25,402 bases of DNA, taken from UHGV virus genome UHGV-1747320; one strand, given 5' to 3'. The DNA comes from a virus. Positions 10,401-15,694 of this stretch are shown piece after piece. Numbering within the stretch: position 1 is the stretch's first letter; each line of letters opens with the position of its first letter. The translations under genes and the position numbers were made by a program. Below the pieces are notes generated by a model, which worked only from the letters and a program-made list of their open reading frames with translations, did not search any database and was not told the origin of the DNA.

Positions 10401-10419
10401 AAGTAAGTGATTACTTAGT
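10401..10419. promoter_or_regulatory. AT-rich imperfect palindrome (TAAGTAAGTGATTACTTAG) in the divergent promoter region between the helicase and ParB-like operons
   Basis: Follows a TATAAT hexamer at 10395-10400; member of the GTAAGTA palindrome family. Confidence 0.4.
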
Positions 10420-10435
10420 GGATTGTAGCAATAAA

Positions 10436-11116
10436 ATGGATGTAAAAATCACGATTTTGCAGGTTGATGTTGCCAACCTTCGCCCGAATACCTGGAACAC
10501 CAATTCGGTTGGTGCGCAGAATTTTGAAAAACTGAAAGGTTCTATCGAAAAATTGGGCTTTTTTAAGCCAATTTTGGCTCGTGAACTTGAAGATGGATTT
10601 TTTGAAATCCTCGGCGGCGAACATCGCTGGCGTGCTGCTATTGAGCAAGGAATTTCAACGGTTCCGGTGCTTTCTGTGGGCAAAATTAGCGATGTCGTAG
10701 CTAAACAGATGTCACTGGTGGACAACGAGCGATACGGTGAAGACGACCAAATCGCATTGCAACGCTTCATTGAAGAAATTCAGTCAGAACTTGACTATCA
10801 ACTGTCTGAAATTGCCCCGTATGACGACGAAATCTCGATGGTTTTAGCAAAAGAGGCGGCAATCGACCTTGAAGCACTGGAGGCGTTGTCTCGTGGTAGT
10901 GATGAGCCTGTCGATACCGACAAACGAGAGAAAACCGAACGTGTGGGTGCGGAACATCAGACCATGCGCTTCAAAGTAACTTTCGATGCGTCAGATCGTG
11001 TTGCAGAAACCATAAAAAACATCATCAAAGAGCAGGCTATTAACACCGGTAATGAAATGGAGAACGCTGGTGAGGCTCTGGTGTGGCTGGTCGACTACTA
11101 CAAGGAGCGTATGTAA
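10436..11116 (+). CDS. ParB/Srx-like N-terminal domain protein (about 226 aa)
   Basis: Signature FEILGGEHRWRAA (ParB GxxRxxA box); acidic C-terminal half. Track ORF begins at a GTG at 10418; ATG at 10436 used here. Confidence 0.75.
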   Translation: MDVKITILQVDVANLRPNTWNTNSVGAQNFEKLKGSIEKLGFFKPILARELEDGFFEILGGEHRWRAAIEQGISTVPVLSVGKISDVVAKQMSLVDNERYGEDDQIALQRFIEEIQSELDYQLSEIAPYDDEISMVLAKEAAIDLEALEALSRGSDEPVDTDKREKTERVGAEHQTMRFKVTFDASDRVAETIKNIIKEQAINTGNEMENAGEALVWLVDYYKERM

Positions 11117-11784
11117 TGACCAAAAAGTTTGAAATCGTATATCGCGACCCGGCAGATCTTATTCCCTATGAGATGAATGCCAAAAAGCATGATGAACAGC
11201 AGATCCGAGATCTGGCCGCAGCCATTAAAAAGCGCGGATTTGACCAGCCAATTACGGTCGATAAGAACGACGTAATTATTACTGGCCACGGCCGCCGTGA
11301 GGCTGCAATTTTTGCTGGACTTGAGCGCGTACCGGTTATTGTTCGCGATGATCTCAGTGATGACGAGGTTCGTGCGAAGCGCCTTGAAGATAACCGACTT
11401 GCCAGCATTGATTACGATGCAATTAAGCTACAGAAAGAACTTGAGTCGCTTGTTCTGGACGATATCGAGGTTTTCGGCTTTGAAGAGCGTGAGTTGAATG
11501 TTCTCGTTGGCAGTATGACAGAAGAAATGGACACCGATTCGCTAGTTATCGATCTTGGCGAAGAAACTAAACGACAGAAGGATGAACACACCGAGATCAG
11601 TCGTGAAGTTGCAGCGGAAGAAGTACGTGTTGTCGACGTATTGGGCTTTAAAACGCTCCCTGCTGGCTCTGCCATTGTTGTTGGTGATTTGCTTGCCCAC
11701 ATGGAAGAAATGACGGGAGAAAGCGGGGTAGACGCATTTGTGGCATATGCGGAGAAGATCTCTTCCGGGGAGATGGCTGCATGA
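11116..11784 (+). CDS. Second ParB/Srx-like domain protein (about 222 aa)
   Basis: Signature ITGHGRREAA; AAGGAG 8 nt upstream of ATG 11116; start overlaps the upstream stop (TAATG). Confidence 0.75.
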   Translation: MTKKFEIVYRDPADLIPYEMNAKKHDEQQIRDLAAAIKKRGFDQPITVDKNDVIITGHGRREAAIFAGLERVPVIVRDDLSDDEVRAKRLEDNRLASIDYDAIKLQKELESLVLDDIEVFGFEERELNVLVGSMTEEMDTDSLVIDLGEETKRQKDEHTEISREVAAEEVRVVDVLGFKTLPAGSAIVVGDLLAHMEEMTGESGVDAFVAYAEKISSGEMAA

Positions 11785-12446
11785 GCAAATACATCATCAA
11801 CGTATCGTTTCAGACACGCGTAAATAAAACCACGCGCACGTTGGAAATCGCTGAGTCGTTCGGGCTTGGTCTGGACGAAAAAGAGTGGACGCTTTACGAC
11901 AATCTGGAGCTGGAAGTGAAGCAGGGCGATGTGGTGTACATCACCGGCCAATCCGGTTCCGGCAAATCCGTTGTGCTGCGCGAGTTGCAACGACAGATGA
12001 AGGATGAAGGGCTGTCTGTAGCCTCCATCGATGATTTTACCTTCGATAATGAGGTTAACGTCATCGATCAGTTGGGCAAAACGACCAGTGATGCGCTTGG
12101 GTTGTTATCTATGGCTGGTCTGAACGATGCATATCTGTTTGTTCGCAAGCCTTCTGAAATGTCAGACGGCCAGAAATATCGTCTCAAGATTGCCAAACTG
12201 ATTGAGTCAGGCGCTAAAGTATGGGCTGCTGACGAGTTCGGCGCTGTTCTCGACCGTGTAACCGCTCAGGTTGTGGCGTCTAACCTCCAGCGTGCCGCTC
12301 GAAAGGTTGGTGCGACGGTAATGGTGGCGACGACTCACGAAGACCTGAAGAACGCGCTGCGCCCGGATATGCAGATCACCAAGCACTACAAAGAACGCGT
12401 GAAGGTGGAATATCACAATGGTAGTCATGATGAGGTCCATTCATGA
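11781..12446 (+). CDS. ABC-type (P-loop) ATPase domain protein (221 aa)
   Basis: Walker A GQSGSGKS, signature-like SDGQKYRL, Walker B VWAADEF, H-loop-like ATTHED; ATGA overlap with the upstream gene. Confidence 0.75.
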   Translation: MSKYIINVSFQTRVNKTTRTLEIAESFGLGLDEKEWTLYDNLELEVKQGDVVYITGQSGSGKSVVLRELQRQMKDEGLSVASIDDFTFDNEVNVIDQLGKTTSDALGLLSMAGLNDAYLFVRKPSEMSDGQKYRLKIAKLIESGAKVWAADEFGAVLDRVTAQVVASNLQRAARKVGATVMVATTHEDLKNALRPDMQITKHYKERVKVEYHNGSHDEVHS

Positions 12447-13333
12447 CGGACATCATCATTAAACGCTACCGCCCTGAAGAGTTTCCGCGTCATCTGGACT
12501 TTCTGGAGCGAATGACTGTTACAAAGGGAACTGTAGAGGACTGGCACGCTCTTAAGTCGCTTCACTACAAAACAGACGGCAAACCTTTCGCGCCAACTTA
12601 CTATCGCTGCGAACTTGATGACCGTCTGGTGGGCGTCGTGGTTATGGCTTACCCGAAACTACTGTTGGCACCTCGCCACCGCATGTTTCCTAAGTTGAAA
12701 CCAACCACTAATACCACCGTGGCTAACCAGTACTGGGGTCGGTACGTGAATAACAACTTTGCGGTGATCAGTCGCTCAGTTGTGGATACTCAGTATCGTG
12801 GCGTAGGCGTCTCTTATCGAATGATTAACCTGGTTAGCAGGATGCATGACCGGCCAATCATTGAGATCCAGTCCTCGATGAGCAAATACAATCCCTTCGC
12901 CATGAAAGCAGGGTTTAAGTTCATCCGCCCTGAGCGACCGAAGAGCTATGAAAGTGCACTGCGTGTATTCCAGCGCCATTTCCGTTCCGACCCGGGTGAT
13001 AACGAGGCGATCGTCAAAGAGTTGTTCGCAATGAGCGAGTCTCGTCGTCGCCGTGCACTGCGTGATCTGGTGGCGGACTACCACAAGAACAGTTCTCTGG
13101 CAAAAGCTGGGCGGAATCGTGGCACGACGATTCAGGACATTGCCGACAGTCTGGTGGACGAGGCCAGCATTGTGAAGCTGCTCAAGGACATTCACAACCT
13201 GAGCTTTACGTCTCCGTTGTATGGTGTGTACCGAAACCCTGACTTTGGCCGTCGACTGCCTGACACGCTGCCACTGCTGGCATTCGACAAACAACCTTTG
13301 GATAAACCGTTAGAAATTGCTTTACCGGCATAA
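12443..13333 (+). CDS. GNAT-like (acyl-CoA N-acyltransferase fold) protein (296 aa), assignment tentative
   Basis: Core resembling the GNAT motif A region (VVMAYP ... QYRGVGVSYRMI ... NPFAMKAGFKF); ATGA overlap with the ATPase gene. Confidence 0.6.
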   Translation: MTDIIIKRYRPEEFPRHLDFLERMTVTKGTVEDWHALKSLHYKTDGKPFAPTYYRCELDDRLVGVVVMAYPKLLLAPRHRMFPKLKPTTNTTVANQYWGRYVNNNFAVISRSVVDTQYRGVGVSYRMINLVSRMHDRPIIEIQSSMSKYNPFAMKAGFKFIRPERPKSYESALRVFQRHFRSDPGDNEAIVKELFAMSESRRRRALRDLVADYHKNSSLAKAGRNRGTTIQDIADSLVDEASIVKLLKDIHNLSFTSPLYGVYRNPDFGRRLPDTLPLLAFDKQPLDKPLEIALPA

Positions 13334-13342
13334 GGATTTGCC

Positions 13343-13609
13343 ATGACGTTAACCGATAAACAAAAGGACATCATCAAAACGCTCAATCTCGGTTATGAGC
13401 GAGGTCATCTACTTGATCTGGACGAATTGCTTGAAGTTTTGCCGTACAAGACAACCAAGCAAAGTATCCAGTTCTCAATTCGCGCTCTGATAAAAAAGGG
13501 GCTGGTGGAGAAAGGGCATACGCGCCAACGCAGTGACAATCGCTATCACCGCCGAACTCTTGGGTTAACCACTTTAGGTCGAGCCAAAGCGAAGTTACTG
13601 GTGATGTAA
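13343..13609 (+). CDS. Small winged-helix-like DNA-binding protein (88 aa)
   Basis: AAGGA RBS; helix-turn-helix-like segment TKQSIQFSIRALIKKGLVEK and basic C-terminus. Confidence 0.6.
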   Translation: MTLTDKQKDIIKTLNLGYERGHLLDLDELLEVLPYKTTKQSIQFSIRALIKKGLVEKGHTRQRSDNRYHRRTLGLTTLGRAKAKLLVM

Positions 13610-13633
13610 TCGGTCTGGGAGCTTATTTAAAGA

Positions 13634-13688
13634 CCTGCTTCTGTATATATAAATAATAAGTAACTTATTAAATATATACGGAAGCAGG
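13634..13688. repeat. About 55-bp near-perfect AT-rich palindrome (CCTGCTTC...AATAAGT-A-ACTTATT...GAAGCAGG)
   Basis: Outer arms CCTGCTTC (13634-13641) and GAAGCAGG (13681-13688) with the perfect core AATAAGTAACTTATT (13655-13669); sits between the ParB module and terS. Confidence 0.65.
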
Positions 13689-13726
13689 CTTAATAAGACA
13701 TGCCCAGACCTAATTAAACAACCCAG

Positions 13727-13786
13727 AAAACAAGTTGGTTAGAAAATGCAGTAAACAAGTTGTTTTAGAGCGCATGGACGCGCTCT
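13727..13786 (+). promoter_or_regulatory. Regulatory region upstream of terS: two AAACAAG-TTG(G/T)TT palindromes (13727-13740, 13753-13765) and hairpin AGAGCGC/GCGCTCT (13767-13786)
   Basis: The same palindrome as in the early promoter modules; the hairpin is flanked by a direct repeat GTTTTAGAG. Confidence 0.5.
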
Positions 13787-13805
13787 GTGTGTTTTAGAGG
13801 GATCT

Positions 13806-14438
13806 ATGACGGTCGAAAAAGACGAGGTAAAAACTCGCCTGACACCAGCGGAGTGGGCCGAAGCTGAAGCCAAATGGACGTCAGGCGAATATACACTCTC
13901 AAAGCTGGAGGAAGAGTACGGCATTCGTCGTGAAACACTCTCCAGACATTTCAAAAAGCGAGGATTAGAGAAAGGCGCGGACTCTGTTGGGAAGATGGTT
14001 CGTGAGTCTCTTAAATCTGACGCAGAGCTTCGCGCTAAAGCCCGTGCGGAAAAGATAGAAGAACGTCGTACACGTTATGACGGCTGGGCGTATGCGTTGG
14101 GGCAGATGGTGATGGTCGAAGTCACTACGGCCAAACGTGAGGGTAAGCCTTTAGGGGCGATTGAGGATTCTCTCAAGAGCTTACAGAGAGCCAGTAATAC
14201 CCTTGCAAAATGCTTTGAAGTTTCGTCCAAAGCATTGGGCATGGATCATGCGGAAAATGACGAGGAAGAAATTCCGAACCTGGTATTTGGTGAGCTTACG
14301 CCTTCCCAGGTGGCGAAATTACGTCAGGAAGACGACGAGCCTGAAATCATCGATGACGAATTGCTTGAGACGTTGGAAGAAGAAGCTCTAAGCGAATTTG
14401 ATGCGACAGATGATGGAAGTGAAGGGGAGGACGAATAA
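13806..14438 (+). CDS. terS: Terminase small subunit (210 aa)
   Basis: Position immediately upstream of and overlapping the large terminase (TAATG); N-terminal HTH-like region and a strongly acidic C-terminal tail. Confidence 0.75.
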   Translation: MTVEKDEVKTRLTPAEWAEAEAKWTSGEYTLSKLEEEYGIRRETLSRHFKKRGLEKGADSVGKMVRESLKSDAELRAKARAEKIEERRTRYDGWAYALGQMVMVEVTTAKREGKPLGAIEDSLKSLQRASNTLAKCFEVSSKALGMDHAENDEEEIPNLVFGELTPSQVAKLRQEDDEPEIIDDELLETLEEEALSEFDATDDGSEGEDE

Positions 14439-15694
14439 TGGCAATCCCGTCCTCGCTCAGTCTTGTGCAACTGCATTCTGGACAGATGAAAGTCTTCCAG
14501 TCTCCGCATCGATTTAAAGTTGTTTGTGCTGGTCGACGCTGGGGAAAATCCCGGTTGTCGATCTCCACTATTATTCGTGCGGCGGCAAAGGAAAAAAAGC
14601 AAAGGGTCTGGTATGTCGCTCCTACTTACCAGATGGCTCGCCAGATTTTGTGGGACGATCTACAGGAAGTTCTGCCTCGTAAGTGGGTTAGGAAAAAGAA
14701 CGACACCACGATGACAATCGTGTTGAAGAACGGTTCGGAGATCGCCCTCAAAGGTGCTGATAAGCCTGACACTCTGCGCGGCGTAGCGTTGCATTTTGTA
14801 GTGCTTGATGAATTTCAGGATATGAAGGCTGACACCTGGTACAAGGTGTTACGACCTACTCTTTCATCGACACGCGGCGGTGCACTGATCATTGGTACGC
14901 CAAAAGGCTTCTCGGAGTTTCACAAACTGTGGACTATAGGCCAGAACGTAGAGCTGCAAAGAAAGGGACAGTGGAAGAGCTGGCAGTTTGTAACTGCCGA
15001 TTCTCCGTTTGTACCTACGGCGGAAATTGAAGCTGCTAAGAACGATATGGACCCCAAATCGTTCGCTCAGGAGTACCTGGCCAGCTTTGAGAACATGTCC
15101 GGGCGCGTTTACTACCCGTTCGATCGTAACGTGCATGTAAAACCGCTTCAGTTCAACCCTCGGTTGCCTATATGGGTAGGGCAGGACTTCAACATTGACC
15201 CGATGTCTTCCGTAATTTTGCAACCTCAGCCAAATGGTGAGCTATGGGCAATTGATGAATTGGTGCTCTTTTCCTCTAACACGGCAGAAGTTTGTGATGA
15301 GCTTGAGAGACGCTTCTGGCGCTGGAAATCACAGGTAACGGTATTTCCAGATCCGGCAGGTGCTTATCGCCAACATGCTCGTGGGGAGTCTGACGTAGAC
15401 ATATTCAAAGAGAAGGGATTCTTACGTGTCGATTATTCGAAAAAGCACCCGCCAATTGCGGATCGTGTTAATGCTGTTAACCGAATGCTGATGACCGCAT
15501 CTGGAGATATCCGGCTGTATATCGATCCGAAGTGCAAGCATTTGATTGATTCACTGGAAAAAGTCATCTACAAGCCTGGAACACGAGATATGGATAAGAC
15601 AGGTGGCATTGAGCATAGTGCAGACGCATTGGGCTATCCAGTACATCGTAGGTATCCAGTCAAAAACCGTGTTATTCTTGGTGGTTCTAGATAG
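14438..15694 (+). CDS. terL: Terminase large subunit (418 aa)
   Basis: Walker A VVCAGRRWGKS, Walker B FVVLDEFQDM, C-terminal nuclease-like acidic residues; GGAGG RBS. Confidence 0.9.
   Translation: MAIPSSLSLVQLHSGQMKVFQSPHRFKVVCAGRRWGKSRLSISTIIRAAAKEKKQRVWYVAPTYQMARQILWDDLQEVLPRKWVRKKNDTTMTIVLKNGSEIALKGADKPDTLRGVALHFVVLDEFQDMKADTWYKVLRPTLSSTRGGALIIGTPKGFSEFHKLWTIGQNVELQRKGQWKSWQFVTADSPFVPTAEIEAAKNDMDPKSFAQEYLASFENMSGRVYYPFDRNVHVKPLQFNPRLPIWVGQDFNIDPMSSVILQPQPNGELWAIDELVLFSSNTAEVCDELERRFWRWKSQVTVFPDPAGAYRQHARGESDVDIFKEKGFLRVDYSKKHPPIADRVNAVNRMLMTASGDIRLYIDPKCKHLIDSLEKVIYKPGTRDMDKTGGIEHSADALGYPVHRRYPVKNRVILGGSR

Follow-up and report, generated by a model that had tools for sequence, protein, structure and literature searches.

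Stem-loops placed between genes take part in several known systems of phage regulation. The RNase III sites of phage T7 are asymmetric RNA structures that lie between genes within the early and the late mRNAs, and not strand-symmetric DNA palindromes, while the nut (boxB) and put sites of lambdoid phages are small hairpins (15-70 nt) located downstream of known promoters. In T4-like phages, the elements called PeSLs are conserved composite terminator/promoter cassettes that are repeated in phage genomes (PMC4122927). The present work concerns a long, A+T-rich, imperfect palindrome of the viral genome UHGV-1747320 (25,402 nucleotides; "the window" hereafter means this whole stretch of analysed DNA), where it stands between a gene for an 88-aa protein and the probable gene of the small terminase subunit, terS. 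An earlier note, drawn up from the letters of the window, had spelled out a 55-bp palindrome at 13634-13688, which proved exact, and had offered three readings of it: a packaging site (pac or cos), an RNase III-type hairpin separating transcripts, and a cruciform-forming regulatory site. We find that this palindrome belongs to a dispersed family with two or three copies per genome, and that its most likely role is that of a transcription boundary or regulatory element, not of a packaging cut site. More specifically, we tentatively regard it, with a probability of about 0.4, as a boundary hairpin that insulates or processes transcripts and is possibly read by a lineage-specific factor.

Sequence matches identified the window as an SSU5-like phage-plasmid. 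The region is 98-99.4% identical to the Escherichia coli phage-plasmid records CMS-2020a, PhiR41_1 and Cyrano; with Klebsiella relatives and Salmonella phage SSU5, the identity falls to about 80%. It is matched by 834 plasmids of PLSDB (from Klebsiella, Escherichia, Enterobacter, Yersinia pestis, Salmonella, Citrobacter and Cronobacter), the best match being the 94.8-kb plasmid NZ_CP081792.1, with 99.8% identity over the 658-bp query. Literature searches (SSU5 with cos, headful or palindrome; arm sequences) returned no published description of the element.

Like PeSLs, the palindrome is a short conserved intergenic stem-loop motif repeated within one phage genome, its sequence is lineage-specific, and it is found at junctions whose neighbouring genes differ between relatives, here at a site B with at least 15 different flanks (PMC2839356, PMC4122927). 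Unlike it, PeSLs are numerous in each genome, with short stems and a clear sigma-70-type early promoter (PMC2839356, PMC4122927), whereas the palindrome has two or three copies, a 24-40-bp duplex with a top made of A+T only, and no polarity in its sigma-70-like promoter scores. With the RNase III hairpins of T7 it shares the appearance of a family of related long hairpins with internal loops between co-directional genes, and its duplex, which exceeds 20 bp, would be long enough for RNase III, as in T7 early and late mRNAs; it differs from them in reading alike on both strands and in occurring also between divergent genes. As in nut and put sites, there are few copies, polar and placed at the heads of transcription units upstream of terminators, the sequence being the same throughout a genome and changing from one relative to another (for nut and put, together with the trans-acting partner), but neither an N- or Q-like antiterminator nor a promoter was identified for the palindrome. 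By analogy, the element would work most like a conserved boundary stem-loop cassette of the PeSL, T7 RNase III or nut/put type, and its architecture may be said to resemble also that of dispersed centromere/operator sites and of palindromic A+T-rich origins. It is ordinary as a regulatory hairpin, and unusual in its size, in its low copy number at block borders and in its concerted, lineage-specific arms.

The symmetry proved to be larger than the 55 bp first noticed. The repeat search placed 13634-13688 at the core of two arms, 13612-13650 and 13672-13710, the outer arms GGTCTGGG/CCCAGACC and a middle stem CTTATT/AATAAG extending the symmetry beyond the 55 bp. The palindrome of the earlier note is thus present; its extent (13612-13710) had been understated, and the two AAAT blocks are direct repeats and not inverted ones, as the notation used had implied. 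The 196-bp gap given for its surroundings does run from the stop codon of the 88-aa open reading frame (13609) to the ATG of terS (13806). The parts of this copy, hereafter site A, are the following:

13612-13710, no strand: the whole imperfect palindrome of about 99 bp (site A copy), from inverted-repeat search, nhmmer and folds
13612-13621, no strand: left outer arm GGTCTGGGAG, from inverted-repeat search
13634-13649, no strand: left inner arm CCTGCTTCTGTATATA, the same sequence at the paralogous sites of SSU5 and NZ_CP081792.1
13648-13655: polar octamer TATAAATA in the core
13650-13672, plus strand: A+T-rich core, with only 2 G/C in the site A copy, differing between sites
13655-13669: sub-palindrome AATAAGT-A-ACTTATT in the core
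13673-13688, no strand: right inner arm TATATACGGAAGCAGG
13703-13710, no strand: right outer arm CCCAGACC, from inverted-repeat search and folding
13634-13688, read in order: CCTGCTTC (13634-13641), T (13642), GTATATAT (13643-13650), AAAT (13651-13654), AATAAGT (13655-13661), A (13662), ACTTATT (13663-13669), AAAT (13670-13673), ATATAC (13674-13679), G (13680), GAAGCAGG (13681-13688)

The folding of site A is far beyond chance. As DNA, the stretch 13608-13714 reached -27.4 kcal/mol, against -6.6 +/- 2.3 kcal/mol for shuffled sequences (z = -9.1; 0 of 200 shuffles equal), and as RNA it reached -50.6 kcal/mol (z = -10.9), a value that no shuffle matched. The RNA fold comprises an inner helix of 17+7 bp, lengthened by outer helices, and thereby attains the duplex length of at least some 20 bp expected of an RNase III hairpin. 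It starts 3 nt past the stop codon of the co-directional 88-aa gene, and the palindrome stands 117 nt upstream of terS. The nhmmer match to the element covered 13600-13717 (E = 6e-30), and site A was the only copy that pattern and profile searches found within the 25.4-kb window. No Rfam family reached the gathering threshold anywhere in the window; sub-threshold matches on 13596-13726 were generic miRNA-precursor hairpins only.

Beyond the window, the element forms a dispersed family. In three otherwise unrelated plasmid regions, the match to the window was confined to the palindrome. A pattern built from the arms was searched in species-representative genomes and in IMG/VR, and the family-wide counts given here rest on the matches listed. 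It retrieved 8 loci from the former and at least 120 from the latter, where many contigs carry two or more copies. The 55 distinct versions have in common the inverted arms CCTGCTTC-Y-GTATA / TATAC-R-GAAGCAGG; the invariant inverted arms CCTGCTTCYGTATATA and the outer GGTCTGGGAG/CTCCCAGACC motifs are common to the copies, distant lineages being different. The core between the arms measures 23-27 nt and is nearly pure A+T, variable in sequence and often devoid of palindromy. An outer motif, GKTCTGGR / YCCAGAMC, is found 12-20 nt beyond the inner arm on nearly every flank, whatever the flanking DNA, so that the unit is about 100 bp long. The profile search found two copies in NZ_CP081792.1 and three in SSU5, the latter being placed as follows:

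Site A, at the junction of the SSU5 record: before terS
Site B, at 33.46 kb of SSU5: before the gene of a 242-246-aa phrog_2500 protein, followed by those of a DnaB-like helicase, a DnaG-like primase and a ligase
Site C, at 78.3 kb of SSU5: between the dam methylase gene and the small genes after dam

The genes of SSU5 lie almost all on one strand, and the three copies split its circle into a late and lysis block (33 kb), a replication and nucleotide-metabolism block (45 kb) and a block of early small genes (25 kb). Elsewhere in these genomes the arms are essentially absent, the exceptions being one isolated SSU5 arm and two near-matches with 2 mismatches. The isolated arm (CCTGTTTCTGTATA, SSU5 43715, minus strand) lies inside the coding region SSU5_049 with no partner arm, and is either due to chance or a remnant.

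Clustering of the flanks of the ~130 listed copies yielded three contexts and a few singletons, with 36 copies in context A and 30 in context C. In context B, the flank formed by the replication operon is conserved and stands opposite at least 15 unrelated flanks; in 57 of the 57 listed copies site B is directly upstream of the phrog_2500-helicase-primase-ligase operon. One singleton is an A-type core at a new location in an E. albertii plasmid. All ~130 copies lie between genes, and each has at least one departing gene, which starts 83-116 nt from the inner arm. At A and C, a co-directional upstream gene ends 2-24 nt before the element; in many B variants it ends 10-53 nt before it, and 30 B copies are flanked by divergent genes. 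The copies are also polar: in contexts A, B and C, as in the E. albertii plasmid, the octamer TATAAATA beside one arm points to the downstream operon, and two of about 100 copies depart from this. Reduced plasmids retain the element together with the replication module, and a fragment of it adjoins insertion sequence (IS) elements in an IncF plasmid. Palindrome copies were also seen on two contigs of a Bacillota metagenome-assembled genome, L010 and L011 (JAEWTL010000044.1 / 041.1); the flanks of L010 are those of an SSU5-type site A, near-identical to enterobacterial phage-plasmids, which probably reflects mis-binning or contamination.

The element differs between lineages. In Klebsiella lineage 1 (77% identity), site A is intact save for one arm mismatch. 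In Klebsiella lineage 2 (~70%), another motif, which has mostly a single arm, occupies sites A, B and C: TTTTAAAGACTTTAAAAGnTATTAAATAnATATAGGAGCCAGG (L141 20470-20520 and L142 20600-20650, both on the minus strand; L138 1775-1825, NZ_CP032196.1). There the palindrome has decayed at site A, with terS and terL, an AAACAAnTTG box and a terminator hairpin kept; site B still holds a degenerate copy of the old palindrome, with a sigma-70 promoter score of 10/12, and a hairpin terminator follows the TTTTAAAGACTTTAAAAGnTATTAAATAnATATAGGAGCCAGG motif at sites B and C, the former called by the scan, the latter recognised by eye. Further site B loci were retrieved through homologues of the neighbouring phrog_2500 protein, without arm-based selection. 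The identity of that protein and the state of the site are given for each:

L145, 64%: canonical arms at site B
L150, 60%: arms CCTGCTYCCCAT / ATGGGAAGCAGG
L147, 54%: CCTAGCTCTGTATA, two copies
L143 (Morganella), 48%: no palindrome, with a different GC hairpin in its place
L152, 46%: CCTAGCTCCCATAG ... CTTATGGGAGCTAGG, with an 83-nt spacer
L146, 45%: arms CCTGCTTTCTATATA / TATTAGAAAGCAGG

Strong folding was found in every tested copy, those of lineages with changed arms among them (z from -4.6 to -10.9). In the site B variants, both arms were altered together, and this symmetric covariation, in which inverted symmetry is kept through two-sided changes, supports a functional hairpin, cruciform or dimer site. 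The paralogous arms of one genome are identical although its cores and linkers have diverged, and all sites change jointly between lineages. A hairpin alone does not predict such concerted evolution of the arms, which suggests either a partner that recognises their sequence or gene conversion confined to the arms. It also speaks for the third suggestion of the earlier note, in that the palindrome may be a cruciform-forming or protein-bound regulatory site. As for the outer arms, the symmetry between left and right flanks is 7.2 within elements and 7.0 between elements; being no higher within than between, it indicates a shared motif and not a covarying helix, and covariation of an outer stem was rejected on this ground.

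We propose that these cassettes mark the borders of three co-directional blocks (late/packaging and lysis, DNA replication and nucleotide metabolism, early small genes) and that the palindrome would act in cis on transcription. When RNA polymerase leaves the upstream block, which ends with the 88-aa gene, the transcript would fold into a 24-40-bp duplex, 3 nt past the stop codon. Together with a T-run, this duplex would terminate transcription at sites B and C. At site A, because the T-run is absent, the duplex would be mainly a pause, 3'-end-protecting or RNase III-type processing structure, and termination would be completed by a separate hairpin and T-run at 13766-13797, leaving the late operon insulated until its activation. 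The arms may additionally be recognised by sequence, via a putative lineage-specific factor. Action at the RNA level, termination or processing, and the binding of a factor are all three steps that we infer. The PeSLs, as terminator/promoter cassettes of phages, offer a precedent (PMC4122927). In line with this scheme, T makes up 5.4 of the 8 nt after the gene-proximal arm at B and 4.6 at C, compared with 3.1-3.8 beyond the distal arm; most copies, though not site A, have a T-run after them, and TCTTTT or CTGTTTTG tails are found at sites B and C and in distant lineages. A separate canonical terminator was seen wherever the hairpin or the T-run is absent (site A, lineage 2 site B and, by eye, lineage 2 site C), while the terminator scan found none before the start of the next gene at sites B and C of lineage 1. 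The transcript-separating hairpin put forward in the earlier note agrees with the block-border position, 3 nt after a stop codon, and with the stable 24-40-bp duplex; RNase III would be the putative enzyme of its cleavage.

Several observations weigh against this boundary-hairpin reading. At site A, the stem base CCTGCTTC/GAAGCAGG is present, and its tail CTTAATAAG has no T-run; the scan did not call the palindrome as an intrinsic terminator. The 30 site B copies between divergent genes stand where a terminator is not needed. A pure hairpin role leaves unexplained both the identity of paralogous arms and their genome-wide joint changes, and the outer arms, as their symmetry of 7.2 within and 7.0 between elements indicates, behave as a sequence motif. 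Lineage 2 retains one arm only at sites B and C, hence the hairpin is not indispensable. The non-Watson-Crick arm pairs, among which G.U occurs 60 times on the sense strand and C.A 9 times, do favour a hairpin in RNA, but this bias is no more than suggestive, as it comes from few independent events and may reflect mutation bias. Promoter searches did not complete the likeness to terminator/promoter cassettes: no sigma-70 promoter was called at sites A and B, and site C gave two borderline ones (9/12), on the opposite strand only. The best hexamer pairs scored about 8/12 toward the gene, against 8.5-8.7/12 in the mirror orientation, and by-eye comparison with the sigma-54, T4 MotA-box, T4 late, T7-like and LexA-box consensus sequences found none with fitting spacing. 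The exact octamer TATAAATA is present, yet we know of no gp55-like factor for these elements. GC skew tracks gene direction only.

Among other explanations, initiation of packaging, with terminase cutting in or beside the palindrome and with the specificity of site A coming from neighbouring sequence, appears very improbable. Its appeal lies in position: as in a lambda-type cos, partial two-fold symmetry adjoins the small terminase gene, 117 nt away, and the linear GenBank record of virion-derived SSU5 opens at the equivalent of 13670|13671, 8-9 nt from the centre, where a staggered symmetric cut would leave overhangs of about 17-19 nt. The SSU5 record thus begins at the equivalent of 13671 and that of Cyrano at the equivalent of 13672, both in the right half of the palindrome. 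A lambda-type cos, however, is unique in its genome and defines the mapped ends, whereas the palindrome is present two or three times per genome, with three same-armed copies in SSU5 and two in NZ_CP081792.1, including sites unrelated to packaging. Moreover, the joined ends of the SSU5 and Cyrano records equal their circular relatives base for base, with neither the duplicated bases of 5' overhang fill-in nor the missing bases of 3' overhang removal. Cyrano, which ciprofloxacin can induce, is a re-annotated pLF82 that was compared with SSU5, its virion reads being indistinguishable from plasmid contamination and its ends unmapped (PMC9928086). As a re-orientation of pLF82, its start provides no independent evidence on ends and was rejected as such; other SSU5-like phage records start elsewhere. 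A Logan contig (L147, ERR14928287_2083, 1-30) starts inside the site B palindrome and not beside terS, and a locus end is no more than 260 nt away from 15 of 128 copies, which represent all three contexts. Contigs L147, L070, L071, L049, L015, L094 and L047 start or end in the palindrome or within tens of bases of it, which fits long A+T-rich multicopy palindromes breaking short-read assemblies. The site A palindrome, conserved in E. coli, Salmonella and Klebsiella lineage-1 types, has also decayed beside terS in lineage 2, where the terminase genes, box and terminator hairpin persist; the pac/cos suggestion of the earlier note is not supported. Typing of the packaging mode from TerL was likewise given up, its Jersey-like and T5-like counterparts being only ~25% identical and the nearer matches (41%, 33%) coming from uncharacterised phages. 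The telRL sites of N15, phiKO2 and PY54 are, like ours, near-perfect palindromes of about 55 bp in enterobacterial phage-plasmids; a protelomerase target was rejected, since paralogous copies are non-palindromic at the centre, plasmid records are circular and there are three copies per genome, and no protelomerase gene is annotated in the SSU5-like records examined. It is also improbable that the family consists of palindromic repeats that are selfish or neutral, act as recombination hot spots and have no dedicated function, being kept up by hairpin template switching and gene conversion and marking the module junctions where recombination happens. The joining of one conserved flank to at least 15 unrelated ones at site B, the A-type core in a new context in the E. 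albertii plasmid, the fragment beside IS elements in the IncF plasmid, the breaking of assemblies by the element and the presence of SbcCD-like nuclease genes in these genomes would all suit such a repeat. On the other hand, no target-site duplication was seen by eye, for which reason a miniature inverted-repeat or other transposon was rejected; there are only two or three copies per genome, at orthologous positions across Escherichia, Salmonella, Klebsiella, Yersinia and Enterobacter; the arms are conserved beside randomised linkers; and the cores evolve by descent at each site, so that conversion of the whole element cannot be frequent.

The remaining explanations would make the palindrome a protein-bound site on DNA. 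A lytic replication origin, in which an easily melted A+T-only core lies between inverted initiator-binding arms, with several per 100-kb genome, strikes us as quite improbable. The palindromic origins oriS and oriL of herpes simplex virus do have an A+T-rich core with initiator arms. Here, too, the core is near-pure A+T and constant in composition and length, though not in sequence, between conserved arms; the element survives with the replication module in reduced plasmids, and site B immediately precedes the operon of the phrog_2500 protein, DnaB-like helicase, DnaG-like primase and ligase in the 57 copies listed. Among sites A-C, replication genes adjoin site B only. We see as possible, albeit doubtful, that the element is a DNA site for a sequence-specific and lineage-specific dimeric or oligomeric protein, either as an operator for a regulator of the three lytic blocks or as a dispersed centromere/operator, its palindromy then reflecting protein symmetry and the hairpin being incidental. 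P1 has dispersed C1 operators, N15 has four scattered SopB sites and pSM19035 has omega sites; known dispersed centromere/operator sites are 13-16-bp palindromes or heptad arrays. As with SopB of N15, omega of pSM19035 and KorB of RK2, the sites studied here are palindromic, scattered, lineage-specific and in some cases placed before operons, and in some lineages one copy is just downstream of a ParA/ParB-like pair; unlike them, the palindrome extends over 55-100 bp, with a 23-27-bp A+T spacer and no copy upstream of parA. Such a protein would account for arms that are invariant at paralogous sites despite diverged cores and linkers, for their concerted changes across all sites of a genome in other lineages, for an outer motif conserved as sequence and not as covarying helix, and for the 30 copies between divergent genes. 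The departing gene at 83-116 nt from each copy, with the core polar toward it, and the retention of the element in reduced plasmids agree with it too. A gene of the ParA type (MipZ/ParA), with a small ParB-like partner of 120-130 aa, was seen a short way upstream of site B in every lineage examined (L136, 45156-46195, with 48361-48414; L150, 229-1330; L151, 145-1250). The pair is directly adjacent in Raoultella-type and K2-type elements: the element begins 10 nt past the small ParB-like gene in L150, and an equivalent, one-armed motif stands ~45 nt past it in L151. Elsewhere, the gap is 1.3-2.2 kb, with 1-3 variable genes or an IS between, and this separation of the par genes from site B by 1-3 genes in most genomes counts against the idea. 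So does the search for a partner, which found no binder among the candidates examined. The 88-aa winged-helix protein encoded near site A was rejected as arm binder, its recognition helix being unchanged in the lineage with altered arms, and the phrog_2500 protein is all-alpha, with no significant sequence or fold match. No arm or half-site was found near repressor-like genes or upstream of parA, sigma-70-like scores toward the gene did not exceed those in mirror orientation, and a half-site separation of 39 bp is unusual for a simple repressor.

The genes around site A and the features between the palindrome and terS are the following:

10418-11116 and 11083-11784: tandem overlapping open reading frames, a pair of ParB_N-domain genes, nuclease/Srx-like and not classical partition ParB
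11781-12446: ABC-type ATPase gene, in the upstream block
Between the ABC-type ATPase gene and the 88-aa gene: gene of a 296-aa protein (phrog_886), in the upstream block
13343-13609, plus strand: 88-aa gene (phrog_900), from the open reading frame list and a PHROGs match, the last of the ParB_N-ParB_N-ABC ATPase-296 aa block, with its stop codon at 13607-13609
13714-13765, plus strand: two 25-nt direct repeats, each ending in a AAACAAGTTG(G/T)TT box (13728-13740 and 13753-13765)
13766-13787, with a tail to ~13797, plus strand: terminator-like GC-rich hairpin and T-run, directly before the terS ribosome-binding site
13806-14438, plus strand: terS, probable small terminase or DNA-binding protein (phrog_867), annotated as Terminase small subunit in Cyrano
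14438-15694, plus strand: terL, large terminase (Pfam Terminase_6N / Terminase_3 / Terminase_6C)

The conserved block formed by the two ParB_N genes, the ABC-type ATPase gene and that of the 296-aa protein (10418-13333) reaches up to the palindrome, downstream of which come the small and large terminase, portal and head genes. The 88-aa protein is predicted to be a winged helix of H-H-H-beta-beta topology (AlphaFold2 model, pLDDT 72.5). A palindromic 13-bp box, AAACAAnTTGTTT, gave 15 strand-hits in the window (at most 2 mismatches, both strands), against 1.46 expected; its 13-nt copies start at 1044, 1528, 2431, 2482, 2967, 8766, 13728 and 13753. There are 15-22 copies per genome, usually 10-30 nt before a start codon; the box usually comes after GATAAT.A..ACCA.CAAGA and is followed by a Shine-Dalgarno sequence and ATG, as before parA, the DnaB-like helicase gene, many small open reading frames and terS. 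From this arrangement it looks like a shared leader, promoter or translational-operator motif. The box at the terS site, unlike the palindrome, is kept in every lineage examined; it would be the better candidate for a signal specific to late-operon expression or to terminase recognition. The terminator-like hairpin is bracketed by the direct repeat TGTTTTAGAG (13761-13770 and 13790-13799) and is conserved in SSU5 and in both Klebsiella lineages. Its conservation before terS suggests that the late operon may be entered through a terminator, i.e., by antitermination or from a downstream start.

Phage-plasmids of the SSU5/pHCM2/pMT1 type occur widely in clinical Escherichia, Klebsiella, Salmonella, Enterobacter and Yersinia pestis, and hardly any work has addressed how they are regulated, where their lytic replication starts and how they are packaged. 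The start of a GenBank record is not to be taken as a mapped genome end. The joining of one module to many neighbours, together with the breaking of short-read assemblies, bears on recombination and on the reliability of assembly and typing. The element offers three exactly defined, conserved cis sites at the borders of functional blocks, which lend themselves to deletion, to exchange or to use as bait for proteins that bind them. One rather speculative view, which we would not rank as likely, is that the palindromes are the cis sites of a lineage-specific recognition system. A phage-plasmid protein would recognise the arms, 14-16 bp long, where each block (late, replication, early) begins, be it as duplex DNA, as a cruciform or as an RNA hairpin, and would in this way link the switching of all three blocks to plasmid maintenance or lysogeny. 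If so, they would form a network akin to nut sites or to dispersed centromere/operators, with a specificity that co-evolves with the arms and could define immunity or incompatibility groups among SSU5/pHCM2/pMT1-type elements. More generally, the lineage-specific arm variants may mark functional groups, in terms of immunity, incompatibility or antitermination specificity.

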